Below are positions 1,037 to 24,568 of a DNA stretch of 64,000 bases, piece by piece; position 1 is the first letter of the stretch, and each line of letters opens with the position of its first letter. A model generated the notes under the pieces. The model was not told the DNA's origin. It was given only the letters and a program-made list of their open reading frames with translations, and did not search any database. The stretch lies in NCBI GenBank assembly GCA_963825525.1, contig CAWGTN010000002.1, positions 1,376,001-1,440,000 on the forward strand. Reading direction: 5' to 3'. A program made the translations under genes and the position numbers. The stretch is from an uncultured Chloroflexia bacterium (GTDB taxonomy: Bacteria; Chloroflexota; Limnocylindria; QHBO01).

Positions 1037-1072
1037 GGTCCCGATGTCACCGGGGCGGCGCACCGCGCCCTG

Positions 1073-1136
1073 CTCGATAGATCGAGCCGGATTCACGGGA
1101 GACGTGGATCCGGCTCACTTCCCTCGATCCATCGAG
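1073..1136. repeat. Two-core (half) CGA-N4-TCG array
   Basis: CTCGATAGATCGAG 1073-1086 and CTCGATCCATCGAG 1123-1136, 50 bp apart, with an internal hairpin GAGCCGGATTCAC/GTGGATCCGGCTC. Confidence 0.7.
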
Positions 1137-1163
1137 CCGCCCGATCGACCGGGACGCTGACCC

Positions 1164-2123
1164 ATGGACTACAAGGACTACTACGCGATCCTCGGCATCC
1201 CGAAGACGGCGACCCAGGCCGAGATCAAGAAGGCGTACCGCAAGCTGGCTCGTGAGCTTCACCCCGACACGAACAAGGATCCGGGGGCCGAGAAGCGGTT
1301 CAAGGAGGCGAACGAGGCACATGCCGTCCTCGCCGATCCCGAGAAGCGCAAGCAGTACGACGAGCTCGGAGCGAACTGGCAGGCCTACCAGAACACCGGG
1401 TACGGCTCGGGCGGTTCGTCCGACTGGGCCGGCTTCGGAGGCGCCCCGGGCGGCACGCGCTGGACGTATCGATCGGCGTCGCCCGATGAGATGGGCGGGT
1501 TCAGCGACTTCTTCCGCCAGTTCTTCGCCGGCGGGGCGACCGGTGCGTCCGGCGGCTCCCCGTTCGGATCGGCCGGCGGATTCGTGGACCTGGGTGGCAG
1601 CGCCCGAGCGCGATCGATTCCATCGGCACAGGCGACCGCGGAGGTGACCCTGGCCGAGGTCGTGACCGGTGCCGAACGGATGGTCAACGTGAACGGCAGG
1701 CGCCTTCACGTCAAGATTCCCGCCGGCGTCAGCGACGGCTCGAAGGTCAAGCTGAGCGGCGCCCTCGACGGCGGTGATCTCGTCATCAACGTCAAGGTCC
1801 AACCCGATGCGCGCTTCCAGCGAGACGGCACCGAGCTTCGGGTGGACGTTCCGCTGACGTTGTCCGAGGCCCTGCTCGGCGCCGAGATTCCCGTCCCGAC
1901 GCCGACCGGCAGCGTCAAGCTCCGCATCCGCCCCAACACCCAGAACGGCCAGGAGATCCGGGTCAAGAACCGCGGCCTGCCCAAGCGCGGATCGGCGCAG
2001 AAGGGCGACCTCGTGGTGACCACCCGCGTCGTCCTGCCCAAGCTCAGCGACGAGGCACGGGATCGACTCGCCGAGGTCCTGGCCACGGAGCCGCAGCCCG
2101 ACCCTCGAGGTTCACGATCGTGA
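1164..2123 (+). CDS. DnaJ-class co-chaperone lacking a zinc finger (CbpA-like)
   Basis: J domain with HPD, G/F-rich linker, DnaJ C-terminal domain, no CxxCxGxG. Confidence 0.92.
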
Positions 2124-2320
2124 CCGCGCTCGGACTGACTCACCACTGGGACTACCGGCCAGTTCTTGGCCGATTTCCCCGCGCTGGGGACGAACAGCGA
2201 GGCAGAAGGGCGCAACCTGGCCGTTTCTCGCTCGCCCGTGGGAAATCCGGCCACCGGGTGGCCGTTGGTCCCACCACAGGGACAGCGCTATCGGGGCGGA
2301 GGGGCAACGGTGCAAACGCC

Positions 2321-4981
<2,661 letters not shown>

Positions 4982-5019
4982 TCGGCCCGGTGGTTCCGCG
5001 CGCGATCGTGCGTGGCCGT

Positions 5020-5194
5020 CGATAGATCGCGGGAAATACGCGCGGAGCGCCCACTACGCGCGGAAGCTTCGATATATCGAGCGGCTTCGCGCGTGAGGTG
5101 CGCGGGGGCGTGACCTTCACGAGCGGGACCCATCGATAAATCGAACAAAGCGCACGCAGATCGTCGGCTGCGTGCAGTTCCCGCCGATCAATCG
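5020..5194. repeat. Four-core CGA-N4-TCG array (family 1)
   Basis: Cores at 5020, 5070, 5134, 5185 (spacing 50/64/51). Confidence 0.85.
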
Positions 5195-5376
5195 AGAGAT
5201 CGGCGGAACAACCCCGACGAGGTGCCATCCCCGCAGCCCAGGTTGGCCGATGTGGTGCACCCACGCACTCATCTCGCCGGTTGGAGCGACCCATCAAGCG
5301 GCAGACGGGGTAGGATTTGATTCCCTCACCGGCCCGCCGGAGCGTGGCCCAATCCCCTGGCAAGGAGATTTCCTCA

Positions 5377-7185
5377 GTGACCCGATCCCCCCGTCTTCGA
5401 CGTCTCGCGGCGCTCGGGACTGCGATGGCCATGATCATGACCATGGCCGTACCCGCTGCCCTCGCGAAGAATCCGAAGCCCCCGATCGACATCCAGATCC
5501 TGGGACTCAACGACTTCCACGGTCAGCTCGAAGCCGTTCCTGCGACCTCCACCTCCGGCGCCCGCATCGGCGCGCTCCAGGGAACGTTCCCCAACCAGAC
5601 CTGCATTCCCGGCGGGACGCCGAACTGCATTCCGGCCGGTGGCGTCGAGTACCTCGCGACCCACGTGGACCAGCTTCGTGCCACGAACCCGAACACGGTG
5701 TTCGTCTCGGCCGGTGACCTGATCGGCGCGACGCCGCTGCTGTCCGCGCTCTTCCACGACGAGCCCAGCATCGAGGCCATGAACCTCATGGGCCTCGACT
5801 ACAACGGCGTGGGCAACCACGAGTTCGACGAGGGCATCTCCGAGCTGCTGCGCGTGGCCTATGGCGACGAGAGCGCCAAGGGATACACCCCGGCGCGAGC
5901 GGATGGCTGCCATCCGGTTGACGGCTGCGGCGACGGCGACGGCTACGCCGGCGCGAACTTCCCCTTCCTGGCGGCCAACGTCGTCTACAAGGCCAGTGGC
6001 AAGACCATCTTCCCGCCGTACGCCGTCCACAACTTCCCCGGTGGCGTGAAGGTCGCGTTCGTGGGTATGACCCTCGAGGGGACGCCGCTGATCGTCTCAC
6101 CCGACGGCATCTCGTCCGTGAACTTCCTCGATGAGGCCGAGTCGGTCAACGCGCTCGTCCCGCATCTTCAGCGACGCGGCGTCGAGGCCATCGTGGTCCT
6201 GCTTCACGAGGGCGGCAGCGTGGCCGCGTCCGGCAACGGAGCCGGAAGCGTCAGCACCATCAACAGCTGCACGAACCCGACCGGCGCAATCCCGGAGATC
6301 GTGCCGATGATGGATGACGCCATCGACATCGTGATCACCGGCCACACGAACTGGGCCGTGAACTGCCTCATCGACGGCAAGGTGGTGACCGGTGCTGCGT
6401 CGCAGGGTCGCCTGATCACCGACATCGACGCCAGCATCGACCGCAAGAGCGGCGACTTCGTGCCGGGCTCGATCACCGTCAACAACCGGATCGTCACCCG
6501 AGACGTGGCTCCGGCTCCCGCGCTCACCAACCTGATCGCGGAGTACAACGTCGTCGCTGCGCCGATCGCGAACGTCGTCGTTGGCGAGACCACGGCACCG
6601 TTGGACCGAACGACGGCTCCCGGCGGCGACTCGTCTCTCGGACGCCTGATTGCCGATGCACAGCTGGCATCGGCGCAGGCTGCCGGCACCGGCTCGCAGT
6701 TCGCGCTCATGAATCCGGGTGGCATCCGCGCCAACCTGGATGCGGGTGACATCACCCACGGCGAGGCGTTCAGCGTTCAGCCGTTCAGCAACATCCTCAC
6801 CACCATGACGTTGACCGGTGCGCAGATCGACACCGTGCTCGAGCAGCAGTTCACTGTGAACAGCGGATCGAGCATCGGGAATGCTCGCACCACCATCCTC
6901 CAGGTGTCCGATGGCTTCACCTACACGTGGGACGCATCGGCACCCGGCGGCAGCAAGGTGGATCCGAGCTCGATCAAGCTCAACGGTGTCACGCTGAACC
7001 CGGCATCCTCGTACACGTTCACCGTGAACAACTTCCTTGCCACCGGTGGCGATGACTTCCCGGCACTCACGCTGGGAACGAATCTCATCACCGGCGCGGA
7101 CGACCTGGTTGCCCTCGAGGCGTACCTAACGGCGAACGACCCGTACACGCCGATCGCGACGTCGAGGATCACCCGGCTGAACTGA
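5377..7185 (+). CDS. Secreted bifunctional metallophosphatase / 5'-nucleotidase
   Basis: Signal peptide, NDFHG, AGD, GNHEFD, GHT, NPGGIR motifs; AAGGAG upstream of GTG 5377. Confidence 0.93.
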   Translation: MTRSPRLRRLAALGTAMAMIMTMAVPAALAKNPKPPIDIQILGLNDFHGQLEAVPATSTSGARIGALQGTFPNQTCIPGGTPNCIPAGGVEYLATHVDQLRATNPNTVFVSAGDLIGATPLLSALFHDEPSIEAMNLMGLDYNGVGNHEFDEGISELLRVAYGDESAKGYTPARADGCHPVDGCGDGDGYAGANFPFLAANVVYKASGKTIFPPYAVHNFPGGVKVAFVGMTLEGTPLIVSPDGISSVNFLDEAESVNALVPHLQRRGVEAIVVLLHEGGSVAASGNGAGSVSTINSCTNPTGAIPEIVPMMDDAIDIVITGHTNWAVNCLIDGKVVTGAASQGRLITDIDASIDRKSGDFVPGSITVNNRIVTRDVAPAPALTNLIAEYNVVAAPIANVVVGETTAPLDRTTAPGGDSSLGRLIADAQLASAQAAGTGSQFALMNPGGIRANLDAGDITHGEAFSVQPFSNILTTMTLTGAQIDTVLEQQFTVNSGSSIGNARTTILQVSDGFTYTWDASAPGGSKVDPSSIKLNGVTLNPASSYTFTVNNFLATGGDDFPALTLGTNLITGADDLVALEAYLTANDPYTPIATSRITRLN

Positions 7186-7205
7186 CAACCGTCAGTCATC
7201 ACGTG

Positions 7206-7234
7206 AAGGGCCGGCCCACAGGGGCCGGCCCTTT
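7206..7234 (+). terminator. Intrinsic terminator hairpin
   Basis: AAGGGCCGGCCC-ACAG-GGGCCGGCCCTTT after the nucleotidase stop. Confidence 0.65.
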
Positions 7235-7277
7235 GCACGTCCGTCGCCGGTCGGGCCGGGCCGCGGTTCCGGCCCAT

Positions 7278-7454
7278 CGATTTGTCGAGTGGAATGCCGC
7301 GGGAACCCTCCAGCTGAGTGCTGAATCCCCGATCTATCGAGTCATCGTGAGCGTGAGGGGCCCGTGGACGTGCTGGTTACGCTCAGGGTCTGCCGATATA
7401 TCGAGGGATCGACACGCAGATCATCGGCTGCGTGAAAATCCCCGCGATATATCG
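7278..7454. repeat. Four-core CGA-N4-TCG array (family 1)
   Basis: Cores at 7278, 7330, 7394, 7445 (52/64/51); CACGCAGATC(G/A)TCGGCTGCGTG shared with the 5020 array. Confidence 0.85.
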
Positions 7455-7489
7455 AAAAGCCGCGAGAGAGCACCGACCACGCGGCCGCC

Positions 7490-7906
7490 TCAGCGATGCT
7501 TGCGGCGTCGCCCGGCGGGAGTCGGCTTGGGACGCTCACGCTCCGTCCGCCGGGGAGGCGGGACGAATCGGCGGCGCCGAATCTCGTCGTTCGCGGCCGC
7601 GATGCGCGCCGGGAATCGGACGAAGGTGGCGTGGGCCGCGAATCCCATCCCGGTCAGCACGATGATGAGCTGCAGGATGAACGGGACGCCGATGACCACG
7701 AGGAGCGGGATGACGCCCCAGGTCACGATGATCGGCCAGAAGATCCACTCGTGGAGGGCAAGCAGCTCGGGATATCGCCGATAGCGGCGCCCCGCCACGT
7801 TGTAGACCACGATGGCGCCGATGGAGATCAGGATCCCGGCCACCCACATGAGGGTGAAGAGATCGGGATACGTCGACGGAGTGAAGGGATCGGTGAGGAC
7901 GTTCAT
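7490..7906 (-). CDS. Small membrane protein
   Basis: About 3 hydrophobic helices, basic tail; TAGACT -10 box 9 nt before ATG. Confidence 0.75.
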   Translation of the reverse strand: MNVLTDPFTPSTYPDLFTLMWVAGILISIGAIVVYNVAGRRYRRYPELLALHEWIFWPIIVTWGVIPLLVVIGVPFILQLIIVLTGMGFAAHATFVRFPARIAAANDEIRRRRFVPPPRRTERERPKPTPAGRRRKHR

Positions 7907-19499: not shown

Positions 19500-19512
19500 G
19501 GTCGGCGCGAGC

Positions 19513-19687
19513 CGATGTTTCGGCTGCCGCGTGGCCCTGAAGCCGTCGCCGGCGCCCCTGCGCCGATATTTCAGGCGCCCGTCCTCGTGAGACGCGCCCC
19601 GGGGCGCCCTCCACGCTCACCACCGACCGAAATATCGGCGGCACGGCGCCTGAGGAACCCGGAGGCCACCGCCCGGCCGAAATATCG
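19513..19687. repeat. Four-core array (family 2, GCCGAWATWTCGGC)
   Basis: Cores at 19513, 19564, 19628, 19678 (51/64/50); about 140 bp is a near-identical direct repeat of the 20509 array. Confidence 0.9.
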
Positions 19688-19728
19688 GCGTCGGGCGTCT
19701 TGGCACTCCGGGGACCGACCCGGCCTGC

Positions 19729-20427
19729 TCAGCCCACGGTCTGCGGCATTCTCCGCGGACGGATCCACAGCAATCCGTCGGCTCCCAGTGGCCGACCGCC
19801 TCTGATGGCGCCCAGCACCTCTCGTGATGTCCCGGGGAGTGCGGTCCCCACGAGCCGAGCGTGGGGCTCAAGGGCTGCGCGATTCCGCCTCGTGTCCTCG
19901 ACGGCCATGACCAGACGCACCGGCCGTTCGTGGCGCGCGGCGAGGTAGTCTCGCTTCTGCACGTTGCGCCGATACTGCGCCTGGAAGTCGACCAGCCTTC
20001 GGTCGATCTCGATGTCGATGATCTCGAGCGGGCCGTAGAGCACGACATCGCATGCCTCCCCGTGCTCGCCGGCGGGCAACTCGAGCGCCACGGTCCAATG
20101 CTGGGTGGCCAAGCGTCGGATGTGTTCCGCAACGGTGAGCTGACCGCTGTCGCGGAGGCCGATCGGGCGGGCGCGGTAGGCGCGCAGAACGATGTCGATC
20201 CCCACGGCTTGCCCCACCGCGCAGATCGTGGAGATGCTGACGCCGGGCTCGCCAAACTCCACGCGGCGCTCGGTGTCGGGCGAGACACCGGCTCTCCGGC
20301 TCGCGGTCACGCGAGTCATTGCCTGCTCCACCCGAGCGAGACGAATCTCCTGGCCGATCGACCCCGCCTGCGCGCGAGCCCGGCGTGCCCCGGCCCTCCG
20401 CTGGCTGGGGCGTGTGACGTGAGCCAT
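19729..20427 (-). CDS. XRE-HTH protein with putative PD-(D/E)XK-like C-terminal domain (paralog 1)
   Basis: IRLAR..AM....ASRRAGVS....RVEFG HTH; LRD.GQL, E-x10-D-x12-E-x-D, DFQAQYRR, VEDTRRN, DGLLW. Confidence 0.8.
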   Translation of the reverse strand: MAHVTRPSQRRAGARRARAQAGSIGQEIRLARVEQAMTRVTASRRAGVSPDTERRVEFGEPGVSISTICAVGQAVGIDIVLRAYRARPIGLRDSGQLTVAEHIRRLATQHWTVALELPAGEHGEACDVVLYGPLEIIDIEIDRRLVDFQAQYRRNVQKRDYLAARHERPVRLVMAVEDTRRNRAALEPHARLVGTALPGTSREVLGAIRGGRPLGADGLLWIRPRRMPQTVG

Positions 20428-20508
20428 TCGGTGATCTTGCCGATGGGGACGTATCCGCGGCTTACCGGCGGGTTGTTCGGAATGGGCTTTCGGCCGTTTC
20501 CGGCGCGC

Positions 20509-20682
20509 CGATATCTCGGCCGCTTCGTGGCCTGGGCTTGATTCCGGCGCCCCTGCGCCGATATTTCATGCGCCGGTCCTCGTGAGAGGAGCCCCGGGGC
20601 GCCCTCCACGCTCACCACCGACCGAAATATCGGCGGCACGGCGCCTGAGGAACGCTCGGGCCACCCCCCGGCCGATATATCG
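20509..20682. repeat. Four-core array (family 2)
   Basis: Cores at 20509, 20559, 20623, 20673 (50/64/50). Confidence 0.9.
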
Positions 20683-20803
20683 GCCCGCGGCGAAGCGCCT
20701 AACCGTCACAGTGTTGTACGGAATCCGGACAGGTGCCATACTCACGCGGCTGCTCATCCCTGCGGGTTGACGAGCGCACCCACCACTGGAGGGCGGAATT
20801 CAG

Positions 20804-22290
20804 TTGGCCGAGACTCAGCGATCCGTGCTTGTCGTCGACGATGACGCCGATATCCGCAAGCTGCTCGAGGACCTCCTGACCGAGGAGGGTTACGCGGTCC
20901 GCCTGGCACCCGACCGGCGCCGAGGCGGCCGAACAGATCACCGCGGACCTCCCGGACCTCGTGCTGATGGACGTCAAGCTCCCCGACCAGGACGGCATCA
21001 CCCTGCTTCGGCAGCTGAAGCGCGAGCACAGCGAGCTCGAGGTCATCGTGATGACCGCGTTCGGCGGCAGCTCGAGCGCCATCAAGGCCATGGAGCACGG
21101 GCGCGTATGACTACGTCACGAAGCCCTTCGAGATCGACGACCTGCTGGCCACCTTCAAGCGCGTGTTCGAGCACGCCGACATGAGCAACGAGGTCAGCGC
21201 CCTTCGCCTCGAGCTCGGCAAGCGCGAAGCCGAGCGCGAGCGGATCGTCGGCAGCAGCAAGCCGATGCTCGAGGTCTTCAAGCTCATCGGCAAGGTGGCC
21301 CCGTCGGACGCAACCGTCCTGATCACCGGGGAGTCGGGCACCGGCAAGGAGCTCATCGCCGAGGCGCTGCATCGGGCCAGCAAGCGCAACCCGCATCCGC
21401 TCGTCAAGGTGAGCTGCGCCGCGCTGCCGGAGTCGCTGCTGGAGACCGAGCTGTTCGGCCACGAGAAGGGCTCGTTCACCGGCGCCATGACCATGCGCAA
21501 GGGCCGATTCGAGAGCGCCAACAAGGGCACGATCTTCCTCGACGAGATCGGCGAGATGACGCTGGGCACCCAGACCAAGCTGCTGCGCATCCTCCAGGAG
21601 CGCGAGTTCGAGCGCATCGGCTCCAACACGCCGATCAAGATCGACATTCGCGTCATCACGGCCACGAACCGCAACCTCGCCGATGAGGTCAAGAACGGCA
21701 AGTTCCGCGAGGACCTCTACTACCGGCTGAACGTCATCCACATCCACATGCCGCCGCTGCGCGAGCGCAAGGACGACATTCCGCTGCTGGTCGAGCACTT
21801 CCTGGTGAAGTTCCGTCACGCGGCGGGTGCCATCCCCACGGCCATCAGCGAGGAGGCGCTCGAGCGGCTGGTCGACCACGACTGGCCCGGCAACGTGCGC
21901 GAGCTCGAGAACGCGATCGAGCGGGCCGTGGTGCTGTCGCGGGGCAACCCGATCACGGTTGAGCACCTGCCGTTCAGCGAGGATCGCGGGGCCCCGGAGC
22001 GTGCCACGTTCGCGGAACGGCGAACCAAGCTCGAGGGTGACGAGGCCGCGCTCTCCGGTCGGCGCGACGCCCTCGACGCGGACGAGGCCGACGCCGATGC
22101 GCGGGACGCCGCCGACACCGAATCGAACGGCGATGGTGCGTTCAAGGCGCAGGTGTCGGCGCTCGAGCGACAGCTGATCAAGGAGGCCCTGGATCGGGCC
22201 GGCGGGAACCGCTCGAAGGCCGCCGAAGACCTCGGGATCTATCGGCGCCTCCTGTACGCCAAGATCAAGGAATACGGGCTGGGCGAGTAG
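20804..22290 (+). CDS. NtrC/AtoC-family sigma54-type response regulator (frameshifted near 20915 and 21100)
   Basis: Receiver VLVVDDD/LMDVKLP/KPF, GESGTGKE, ELFGHEKGSFTGA, WPGNVREL, Fis HTH. Confidence 0.9.
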
Positions 22291-22351
22291 TAGTCCGGCG
22301 TTTTCGGGCTCGGGTCCGGGGCTCGGGTCCGGGGTCGGGGCTCGGCGTCTT

Positions 22352-22526
22352 CGATATATCGCGGGAAATGCACAGGAACGGTCCGCCGCCGCGCCGTTCC
22401 CTCGATACTTCGAGCGCCTCAACGCTGGAAGGGCTCGCGGGCGCGCACTTTACGCTCCGCAGCACTCGATAGATCGCGGGTTCCGCCCTCGAACACGCCG
22501 CCAAGTGACAATCCCGCGATCTATCG
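22352..22526. repeat. Four-core array (family 1)
   Basis: Cores at 22352, 22403, 22467, 22517 (51/64/50); perfect inverted repeat CTCGATAGATCGCGGG / CCCGCGATCTATCGAG. Confidence 0.88.
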
Positions 22527-22582
22527 AGCTGAGCGGAACCTGGTAAGCGGCCGAAAATTGGCGCCCGCCACACTTCCAAGGC

Positions 22583-23284
22583 ATGAGATCCCGTAGCAGC
22601 CGACGAAGAGCGCGCGTGCAGAGCGAACGCATCGGCGCAGAGATCACGCTCGCGCGGACGACGTTGGCGATGTCGGCGGAGCGGGTTGCCGCGAGAGCCG
22701 GCGTATCGTCGTCGACGGTGTGGCGGATCGAGCGCGGAGAACCGGGCCTGACGCTCACCTCCATTTCCGCCGTGGCCGAGGCCGTCGGACTCGACCTCGT
22801 GCTCCGGGTGTACCCCGGAACCCCGCCTTCACTGAGGGACACGGGACAGCTCGAGCTCGCTGAGCTCATCGTCACCCGCGCCGCGCCGACTTGGCAGCCG
22901 ACGATCGAGCTGCTGGTCGGTCAGCACGGTGAGTCCATCGACCTTGCGCTGTTCGGCTCACTCGAGGTTTGGGCCGTGGAGATCGAGCGCATGGCAACGG
23001 ACTTCCAGGCTCAGTATCGAAGGGCCGATCAGAAGCGAACGACGTTGGCGGCGGGGCATCAGCGCCAGACGCGTCTCGTGATGGTGGTCGAGGACTCGCG
23101 TCAGAATCGGCGGGTGATGGGAGCGCACCGGGATCTGATCGGACGAGCGCTTCCGGCGGGCTCGCGCGAGATCTTCCAGGCACTGGAACGCGGCGTGCCG
23201 CTGGGCCGCGACGGGCTGCTGTGGGTTCGCCGGCCTCGCAGGCCTCGCAGGGCTGGGCCAATCCCAGCGGGGTCTACTCGATAG
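22583..23284 (+). CDS. XRE-HTH protein with putative PD-(D/E)XK-like domain (paralog 2)
   Basis: Colinear with 19729..20427: AGVSSSTVWRIERG, LRDTGQL, IDLAL..VEIER, DFQAQYRR, DGLLW. Confidence 0.82.
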   Translation: MRSRSSRRRARVQSERIGAEITLARTTLAMSAERVAARAGVSSSTVWRIERGEPGLTLTSISAVAEAVGLDLVLRVYPGTPPSLRDTGQLELAELIVTRAAPTWQPTIELLVGQHGESIDLALFGSLEVWAVEIERMATDFQAQYRRADQKRTTLAAGHQRQTRLVMVVEDSRQNRRVMGAHRDLIGRALPAGSREIFQALERGVPLGRDGLLWVRRPRRPRRAGPIPAGSTR

Positions 23285-23876: not shown

Positions 23877-24568
23877 ATGCGCTGGCCGCGTTCCCCGCGG
23901 CCTCGCAATTCGGAGGAACGTGCCGCCCGCGATCGGGAGCGGATGGTGTCGGATCAGCTCGTGGCGCCGCGGGATCACCGACCCGGAGGTGCTTGCCGCC
24001 TTCGAGCGGGTTGAGCGCCATCGGTTCGTGGACGACGGCGACCCCTACGGGGACCACGCCCTTCCGCTCGGCTCCGGCCAGACCATCTCCCAGCCGTACG
24101 TCGTCGCGCTGATGACCGCCGCGGCACGACCCGCAACGGGTTGGGCCGATGCCCCGGTCCTCGAGATCGGGACCGGCTCCGGGTACCAGGCGGCCATCCT
24201 GGCGCGAGCTCGGGGCCAGGGTCGTCAGCATCGAGCGTCACGCGGACCTGGCGGACTCGGCGCGCCGGCACCTGGCGGAGACGGGCCACGGCGAACGTGT
24301 CGCGGTCATGGTCGGTGACGGCAGCCAGGGATGGGTGACGGGCGCGCCGTATCGGGCCATTTTGGTCACCGCCGGTGGCCCTGCGGTGCCACCGCCACTG
24401 CTCGAGCAGCTTGATGAGATGGGCGGGCGGCTCGTCATGCCCGTCGGCGACCGCGAGCACCAGGTGCTGACGCTGGTCGAGCGGAACGGCGAGGAGTTCA
24501 CGACCCGAGACCTTGGCGCGGTCGTGTTCGTCCCCCTCATCGGCGAGCATGGTCACTCGGCGAGATAG
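23877..24568 (+). CDS. pcm: Protein-L-isoaspartate O-methyltransferase (frameshifted)
   Basis: [35 protein letters not shown] across frames. Confidence 0.9.

Follow-up and report, generated by a model that had tools for sequence, protein, structure and literature searches.

Palindromic arrays on either side of a Limnocylindria 5'-nucleotidase gene are probably dispersed repeats paired with an HTH-nuclease gene

REP/REPIN sequences and RAYT constitute, to our knowledge, the one well-studied, long-lived, and lineage-inherited partnership between dispersed bacterial repeats and a single-copy enzyme gene. Miniature inverted-repeat elements (MITEs) are mobilized by full-length insertion sequences, and in integron attC cassettes and Xer/dif modules imperfect palindromic sites bound single genes. 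As set out in one study (PMC3337134), the REPIN-RAYT system consists of a single-copy gene flanked by its own repeats, with one paralogue per repeat type and repeats built as inverted doublets; three such RAYT/repeat pairings are described there in one genome, that of P. fluorescens SBW25. In a 64,000-nucleotide stretch of a Limnocylindria (Chloroflexota) genome (the window, G000:C2:1376001-1440000; the genome G000 comprises 2.58 Mb in 4 contigs, with 68.7% G+C and a completeness of 91.8%), two arrays of palindromic cores lie on either side of a 5'-nucleotidase gene. Judged from sequence comparison, these two arrays are probably separate copies of a dispersed repeat that is paired with a gene for a protein with a helix-turn-helix (HTH) domain and a nuclease fold, inserted beside a nucleotidase gene that was already in place.

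The original prediction, made from the letters of the window, had placed arrays with cores at 5020/5070/5134/5185 and 7278/7330/7394/7445 around the nucleotidase, and a repeat finder reproduced all 8 cores, with spacings of 50/64/51 in the upstream array and 52/64/51 in the downstream array (Table 1). Each array is ~200 bp long and carries four CGATnnATCG cores, and both have the same orientation. The strict pattern CGATNNATCG was found 19 times in the window against 3.49 expected, a count that none of 100 shuffles reached; it misses the core at 7278 because that core is degenerate (CGATTTGTCG). The upstream array starts 30 bp past the clpB stop, and the downstream array ends ~15 bp before the stop of a convergent membrane-protein gene (7490-7906, minus strand). 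Between them the nucleotidase has its own upstream region and terminator, as predicted. Also in line with the prediction, the two arrays have a 22-nt linker hairpin in common (21 of 22 positions identical), while their other linkers differ to an ordinary degree (L12 identity, 0.62, rank 159 of 276 array pairs; L23 identity, 0.63, rank 201 of 276). Windows with at least 21/22 identity occur in 11 of the 276 pairs; one of these pairs is a segmental duplicate and in nine the window overlaps conserved core, so that the pair flanking the nucleotidase is the only one with such a window in a linker. We propose that this shared hairpin reflects patchy gene conversion or copying between neighboring arrays. 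The HTH gene to which the arrays had been related lies 15.1 kb from the second array, and both arrays are 15 to 18 kb away from it.

The same prediction had left two readings standing, namely, that the arrays delimit exchangeable gene cassettes or that they are non-autonomous copies spread in trans. On the first, the arrays would be recombination sites that move the nucleotidase together with its promoter and terminator, like integron attC sites or dif modules. To determine what relatives carry, the interval was compared among congeners. The closest nucleotidase, in G001 (82 to 86% nucleotide identity), has neither array: its clpB-nucleotidase gap is ~200 bp shorter, and ~10 bp stand in place of 247 bp (7243-7490) on the other side. 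G009 likewise lacks both arrays, with gaps of ~160 and 96 bp and the nucleotidase in place. From the terminator hairpin to the stop of the membrane gene there are 15 to 25 nt in G001 and G009 and ~230 bp more in G000, the difference being the array. Alignment of the upstream side to G001 and G009 gave no fixed insertion borders because the intergenic DNA is too diverged from both. In G002, where only 188 bp separate clpB from the membrane gene, neither the nucleotidase nor a residual array was found; a cassette would be expected to leave a single residual array at such a gene-less clpB-purH site. Throughout the genome, 17 of the 24 arrays of this family stand alone, with no neighbor of the same family within 10 kb.

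Contigs from sequencing runs gave a similar picture. In run X11, a contig of 758 nt aligns to 4780-4981 and 5298-5798, with 55 other letters in place of 316, and is thus without the upstream array (10 differences in 501 on the gene side, 98% identity); the downstream array is represented in that run by another contig (7311-7741). The upstream array occurs in contigs of X5 and X8, at 96 to 97% identity. No contig of the four runs compared joins across the array-gene-array segment, and as no piece spans this stretch, the runs are uninformative on it either way. Small joints seen inside the nucleotidase gene in run contigs have sides of <30 letters and probably come from other organisms.

The orthologous nucleotidase therefore keeps its place whether two arrays, one, or none are present, and the arrays were gained or lost singly. 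On these alignments, the array-gene-array unit is not mobile, and presence or absence of the nucleotidase among congeners does not follow the arrays. A syntenic nucleotidase without arrays (G001 and G009), together with arrays that mostly occur singly, is what the original prediction had itself named as speaking against cassettes. The bracketing of one complete transcription unit by two arrays in the same orientation does resemble a cassette, and so do the variable length of the clpB-to-membrane-gene interval (188 bp to 9.8 kb in 9 genomes), the family-3-type array within that interval in G021, and the lack of synteny, in congeners, of the DNA separating the family-3 arrays around the third HTH gene. 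Given the array-free loci, the X11 contig, the empty G002 site, and the solitary arrays, however, cassette boundaries are a very improbable explanation. The likeness to attC and Xer-dif modules is limited to imperfect palindromic sites on either side of a single gene; here, gene presence is independent of the sites, and most sites are single.

We next consider the family to which the two arrays belong (family 1). An nhmmer search of the whole 2.58-Mb genome, using a profile from four window arrays, returned 24 arrays on three contigs. Alignment of all copies defined an element of ~190 bp, consisting of two inverted doublets of a ~24-nt unit with the palindromic core TCGATnnATCGA. The unit is made up of the core plus GGGAA...CAC and occurs four times per array in alternating orientation. 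Linker lengths are fixed at 40-41, 54 (in 19 of 24 copies), and 40-41 nt, and the middle 54-nt linker between the doublets carries GCGTGAG...CTCACGC. Since the element has dyad symmetry, arrays score on both strands. The three families found in this genome (see below) comprise 42 arrays, all of them intergenic by gene calls of our own based on GC3; they occupy tandem, divergent, and convergent gaps in about the genome's proportions, many of them 5 to 30 bp from a gene end. Some clustering around the partner genes was seen, with 4 of the 16 family-1 arrays on C2 within 25 kb of their own gene and 5 of the 10 family-3 arrays on C2 within 10 kb of theirs. Two family-1 arrays, C1:17382-17564 and C2:1466506-1466689, are 99% identical including their flanks, which may be a segmental duplication or redundant assembly; we treat this only 99% pair as a segmental duplicate because the flanks are shared too. 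In orthologous arrays of G000 and G001, the cores are 28/30 identical and the spacing is kept, with linkers at 32/54 and 17/40 and flanking coding DNA at 56/64 and 58/68. Helical phasing of the cores was considered and dropped, as neither 50-51 nor 64 bp corresponds to full helical turns of 10.5 bp. In G002, doublets follow each other in steps of 50 bp or ~200 bp over 400 to 600 bp (G002:C16:121869-122267, G002:C13:55508-56088, and G002:C34:216253-216413), and tandem extension of arrays is possible there.

A dyad-symmetric element of this kind could also be a structured RNA, or a terminator/attenuator within the transcripts of the flanking genes. Single-strand folds of 22 copies are more stable than mononucleotide shuffles (mean z, -3.8), and many copies lie directly past stop codons. 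The z-scores were not counted as evidence because four mutually complementary cores inflate z. An RNAalifold-type consensus of the 22 copies contained the core palindromes only, with no covarying linker pairs; there were 0 Rfam matches in window positions 1-26000; and the copies score on both strands and sit in every type of gap. We therefore give an RNA function hardly any credence.

By alignment to congeners, the arrays are insertion-polymorphic between species and strains. The family-1 site C2:1993842 is empty in all four congeners compared (G017, G020, G002, and G009), where the adjoining genes overlap by ATGA; in G000, an insert of ~232 bp lies between ...GCATGA and TGACG..., and the last core supplies the new start codon. 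Site C2:659439 is empty in 4 of 4 (G001, G017, G009, and G002), again at a stop/start overlap and with a possible 8-9-bp duplication. A third site, C1:67252, is empty in 3 of 5 (G017, G009, and G002), occupied in G001, and holds another element of ~190 bp in G020. This G020 insert (L083; G020:C4:191950-192400) repeats a CCACGGGTCAA motif, the same junction having been hit by different elements. The family-3 array C2:1800295, inserted two nucleotides past a TGA, is absent from G017. Differences also run the other way: the junction of purH and the membrane gene, free of arrays in G000, holds a family-1 array in G010, and G002 has a full array at the lon-dnaJ junction, where only a two-core remnant (1067-1138) is left in G000.

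To describe the partner of the arrays, the genes for HTH-nuclease proteins were compared within the genome. There are three paralogues (100, 50, and 30% identity to the family-1 protein), each flanked by its own array family. The family-1 and family-2 genes lie in the window; the family-3 gene is at C2:2005813-2006502, with flanking arrays that have GGCCAnTnAnTGGCC cores. Families 2 and 3 number ~6 and ~13 copies, respectively. The NtrC-like sigma-54 activator gene had been cited as a second gene held between two arrays. Its placement stands, with an array of family 2 on one side (20490-20699) and an array of family 1 on the other (22343-22545); the two are the flanks of two neighboring HTH genes. 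Two neighborhoods are conserved across genera, ntrC-like/HTH/ytxH/pcm, which the window has, and Aldedh/HTH/Nramp; the NtrC-like gene thus lies between arrays because its position is conserved and not as a cassette. No constant partner gene, DNA methyltransferase included, was found among the neighbors of the HTH-nuclease genes of relatives. Several conserved genes nearby are split by frameshifts, which may be assembly indel errors or real pseudogenes: the NtrC-like gene near 21100, PCMT as open reading frames (ORFs) 23920-24318 and 24149-24568, and a ribonucleotide-reductase-like gene in L003 (~2880-3310).

The taxonomic family is represented by 81 genomes, of which 70 have the HTH-nuclease gene family (a tally that takes in the unpublished genomes G043, G054, and G063), with 1 to 10 matches each, several of them clustered 3 to 7 kb apart. 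A large share of the matches have exactly one in-frame stop (TGA, TAG, or TAA) and may be decaying copies. The loci of relatives were compiled as 38 rows, three pairs of which represent identical or nearly identical loci. In 15 of the 38, the gene flanks carry three or more palindromic cores, and in 7 more an 8-mer recurs at least four times, so that flank repeats are present in 22 rows at most; in four of the 16 rows without flank repeats by strict criteria, the flanks are truncated by the end of the contig. No fewer than 13 core types were distinguished, among them an ATCGGCTsAGCCGAT type from G043 (locus L063). The recognition helix S-T-x-x-R is common to the proteins beside CGATnnATCG-type cores, and other helices occur beside other cores.

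Within the genus, the doublet pattern CGATNNATCG-N38-44-CGATNNATCG was counted in 12 genomes: 24 in G000, 27 in G002, 24 in G095, 8 each in G086 and G001, 4 each in G064, G103, and G111, 2 in G009, and 0 in G017, G016, and G020. The reversed-pattern control gave 0 in all 12. In the nine doublet-bearing genomes, the gene match has an E value of at most 1e-76 and is uninterrupted in eight. The best gene matches in G017, G016, and G020 are 4.5e-46, 3.5e-33, and 1.2e-16, respectively, each with an in-frame stop. The co-occurrence of CGAT-type doublets with a strong gene match in 12 of 12 genomes suggests that repeat and gene are kept or lost together.

Ordinary MITEs of an unrelated insertion sequence, lying near HTH genes by coincidence, would also be intergenic, dispersed, insertion-polymorphic, and dyad-symmetric overall. 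Such an element would not be expected to come in three families, each with its own HTH-nuclease paralogue, nor to change core type with gene lineage in other genomes, nor to co-occur with the gene in 12 of 12 genomes of the genus. As neither near-identical copies nor a consistent target duplication was found, this explanation has very little chance of being correct.

The family-1 protein (233 aa) scores above the Pfam cut-offs for an XRE HTH (HTH_31, 31.2 bits, cut-off 27; HTH_3, 26.4, cut-off 23), and its Pfam matches are HTH only. In the AlphaFold2 model (predicted local distance difference test score [pLDDT], 92.3), HipB and C-protein structures match residues 4-78. The predicted C-terminal domain has the alpha-beta-beta-beta-alpha-beta core of the PD-(D/E)XK fold (H89-99, E105-111, E118-124, E128-135, H141-159, and E162-170). 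Its closest fold matches are NucS 2vld_B (Z, 10.7; root-mean-square deviation [rmsd], 2.8; 103 aligned), 1y88_A (Z, 9.6; rmsd, 3.9; 108 aligned), and XisH-like 2okf_B (Z, 9.2; rmsd, 3.3; 109 aligned); the weaker matches to Can2/Card1 nuclease domains and Hjc (Z, 7 to 8) perhaps reflect only a common arrangement. Foldseek searches against the PDB gave mostly HTH matches, and the nuclease fold surfaced only in a wide VIA search. E109, D120, and E133 are invariant in 32 sequences, with acidic residues on strands 2 and 3; R136 is shifted in family 3, and K151 on the next helix is invariant. The protein thus shares the core fold and the invariant acidic residues with PD-(D/E)XK nucleases that have a separate DNA-binding domain, such as NucS/EndoMS (2vld), XisH-like proteins (2okf), and Hjc (1ob8). 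It differs from them in its N-terminal XRE HTH, in a lysine off the canonical place, and in a nuclease domain without a Pfam family match, whose Atlas look-alikes are Chloroflexota clusters. Named homologues of the HTH protein come from Chloroflexota/Candidatus Limnocylindria metagenome-assembled genomes. Many homologues lie on contigs of only 1 to 3 kb, which would fit flanking repeats breaking short-read assemblies.

A homodimer of the family-1 protein was also modeled. It scored 0.49, against 0.00 for the best of 3 controls, a value reached by 20 of 30 proteins solved as one-chain pairs and by 1 of 23 solved as single chains. Contact agreement between runs was at least 77% and partner pLDDT at least 77 (own alignment used). 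This result may reflect likeness, because the interface (residues 54-82) resembles solved XRE/HipB dimers.

From the sequence relationships above, we infer DNA binding, catalysis, action in trans, and a route of spread as follows. Dimers of the protein would bind the palindromic cores, several to an array, and its nuclease domain would cut or nick at or near the arrays. From time to time, an array could thereby be copied to a new gene boundary, with a preference for boundaries close to the gene, and neighboring arrays could undergo patchy gene conversion. Between copying events, selection would keep cores and spacing, and linkers would drift. Of the earlier suggestion of non-autonomous copies spread in trans, the dispersed family of 24, the insertion polymorphism, and the co-occurrence with the gene are borne out, and the protein may act on the copies in trans. 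A stronger form of this proposal makes the XRE-HTH/PD-(D/E)XK protein the engine of a second, independently evolved repeat-enzyme partnership, which cuts the cores, copies arrays into gene boundaries, and renders inter-array DNA (the clpB-purH interval and the islands around HTH genes) prone to gene gain and loss; we hold this form only tentatively and regard it as doubtful.

Several observations weigh against insertion and copying by the partner protein. The copies are old, with a median pairwise identity of 58.5% in family 1, and no recent burst is visible, unlike in REPIN populations. Alignment of the four empty sites revealed no consistent target-site duplication: TGA stands on both sides at one, the possible 8-9-bp duplication occurs at another, and there is none at two. 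Target preference is unreadable from the extra empty sites because three of the four were chosen for tight flanking genes. The best gene match in G086 has one in-frame TGA, yet that genome has 8 doublets. The 12/12 co-occurrence is suggestive rather than statistical, since the genomes are kin and their independence is overstated. In the protein, the (D/E)xK lysine is not maintained (E, D, or I at position 135, then R), so that the domain could be inactive, and we know of no PD-(D/E)XK nuclease that moves DNA by itself. Finally, conservation is limited to cores and spacing, which a binding platform selected by the host fits equally well.

Such platforms form the main rival explanation, and one that we consider unlikely. 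Here, the arrays would be cooperative sites for an HTH regulator, silencer, or nucleoid organizer whose nuclease fold only oligomerizes; they would loop out or insulate the nucleotidase, and new copies would be rare products of ordinary duplication or recombination. XRE proteins are typically palindrome-binding repressors. The confinement of conservation to cores and spacing, both among the 24 copies and between the G000 and G001 orthologous arrays, the missing canonical lysine, and the loss of arrays alongside a broken gene, a fate to be expected of sites left without their reader, all agree with this explanation. It accounts less readily for arrays between convergent gene ends and in stop/start overlaps, where no promoter is expected, for flanking genes without a common function, for the invariance of E109, D120, and E133, and for whole arrays of ~200 bp inserted at sites empty in 3 to 4 congeners. 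Collectively, constraint and joint loss are explained equally well by host-selected platforms and by a dispersed repeat paired with the HTH-nuclease gene, and whole-array insertions into stop/start overlaps less well by the former.

REPIN-RAYT (PMC3337134) is the closest known system, and the present one matches its architecture in several respects. An enzyme gene is flanked by its own repeats, with one repeat family per paralogue, three here as in SBW25; short palindromic units form inverted doublets between genes, here two doublets per array (~190 bp); and there is one gene copy per family at conserved chromosomal positions, with co-occurrence of repeat and gene. The protein, however, has an XRE HTH and a PD-(D/E)XK fold in place of an HUH/Y1 (IS200-like) tyrosine transposase, and the families comprise 6 to 24 copies, ~58% identical, with no near-identical population around a master sequence. 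A search for RAYT (PF01797) gave 0 matches in the 91.8% complete G000, and the control search was positive in 6 of 14 genomes. Without an HUH/Y1 enzyme and without a near-identical population of copies, the array system is not a member of REPIN-RAYT and is only alike in architecture. The arrays resemble MITEs in their small size, lack of coding sequence, dyad symmetry, intergenic placement, and insertion polymorphism, and in that related sequence stands at each end of a protein-coding element; they differ in the lack of a recognized transposase, a consistent target-site duplication, and young near-identical copies. Literature searches on REPIN/RAYT, on Limnocylindria repeats, and on restriction endonuclease-like/XRE/transposase/MITE combinations returned no description of this protein-repeat pairing.

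The features of the window that bear on the arrays are listed in Table 1. The Metallophos score on the nucleotidase ORF, 21.4 bits, is just below the 21.5 cut-off. The likely start, read from the sequence, is GTG 5377, with AAGGAG ahead of it at 5362-5367, and the N terminus looks signal-peptide-like by eye. The order lon-dnaJ-clpB-[variable]-membrane gene-purH-glpX is kept in the 8 congeners compared (the synteny tally takes in the unpublished genome G006). The nucleotidase occupies the variable slot in G000, G017, G009, and G021, and in G001 too by DNA match; it is missing from the slot, there 188 bp to 3.7 kb long, in G002, G010, G014, G016, and G020. The clpB-to-membrane-gene interval is a hot spot of gene content, with lengths of 188 bp and 0.9, 1.75, 2.5, 3.5, 3.7, and 9.8 kb in different congeners, and the family-3-type array in G021 lies at L019 9533-9661. 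The listed clpB ORF (2120-4981) reaches too far at its 5' end: alignments with relatives begin only at residue ~57-68, and its first ~150 bp are the family-3 array.

Table 1. Arrays, partner genes, and nucleotidase features in the window
Feature	Position	Strand	Basis
Family-1 remnant, decayed, between lon and dnaJ	1067..1138		Two cores, 1075 and 1125
Family-3 array (GGCCAnTnAnTGGCC-type cores), between dnaJ and clpB	2141..2275		Repeat search
Family-1 array upstream of nucleotidase	5011..5210		Cores 5020-5029, 5070-5079, 5134-5143, 5185-5194
Linker hairpin CACGCAG-N8-CTGCGTG, copy 1	5153..5174		Sequence reading
5'-Nucleotidase ORF	5317..7185	+	Pfam 5_nucleotid_C, 137 bits
Terminator-like G+C hairpin and T run, after nucleotidase	7205..7234	+	Read in sequence; conserved in G001, G009, G017
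Family-1 array downstream of nucleotidase	7267..7475		Cores 7278, 7330, 7394, 7445
Linker hairpin CACGCAG-N8-CTGCGTG, copy 2	7413..7434		Sequence reading
Family-2 array (CCGATATwTCGG-type cores), 3' flank of family-2 gene	19501..19704		Repeat search
Family-2 paralogue, 50% identical to family 1	19729..20427	-	Sequence comparison
Family-2 array, 5' flank of family-2 gene	20490..20699		Repeat search
NtrC-like sigma-54 activator gene, frameshifted near 21100	20804..22290	+	Pfam, neighborhood comparison
Family-1 array, 5' flank of family-1 gene	22343..22545		Repeat search
Family-1 gene, 233 aa, XRE HTH (5-78) and PD-(D/E)XK-fold domain (88-218)	22583..23284	+	Pfam, AlphaFold2, fold matches
Family-1 array, 3' flank of family-1 gene, overlapping last codons	23271..23472		Repeat search

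For annotation, paired repeats around a gene should not be called a cassette before relatives have been checked. For the lineage itself, an uncultured soil group of Limnocylindria (Chloroflexota), the findings point to a protein unrelated to RAYT, an HTH fused to a nuclease fold, in the same architecture, with support that spans insertion polymorphism, protein-repeat co-variation, and joint loss. If the protein is active, a partnership of repeat and enzyme would have arisen more than once, and one protein together with one 12-bp palindrome would make a simple test pair for the copying and persistence of repeats.

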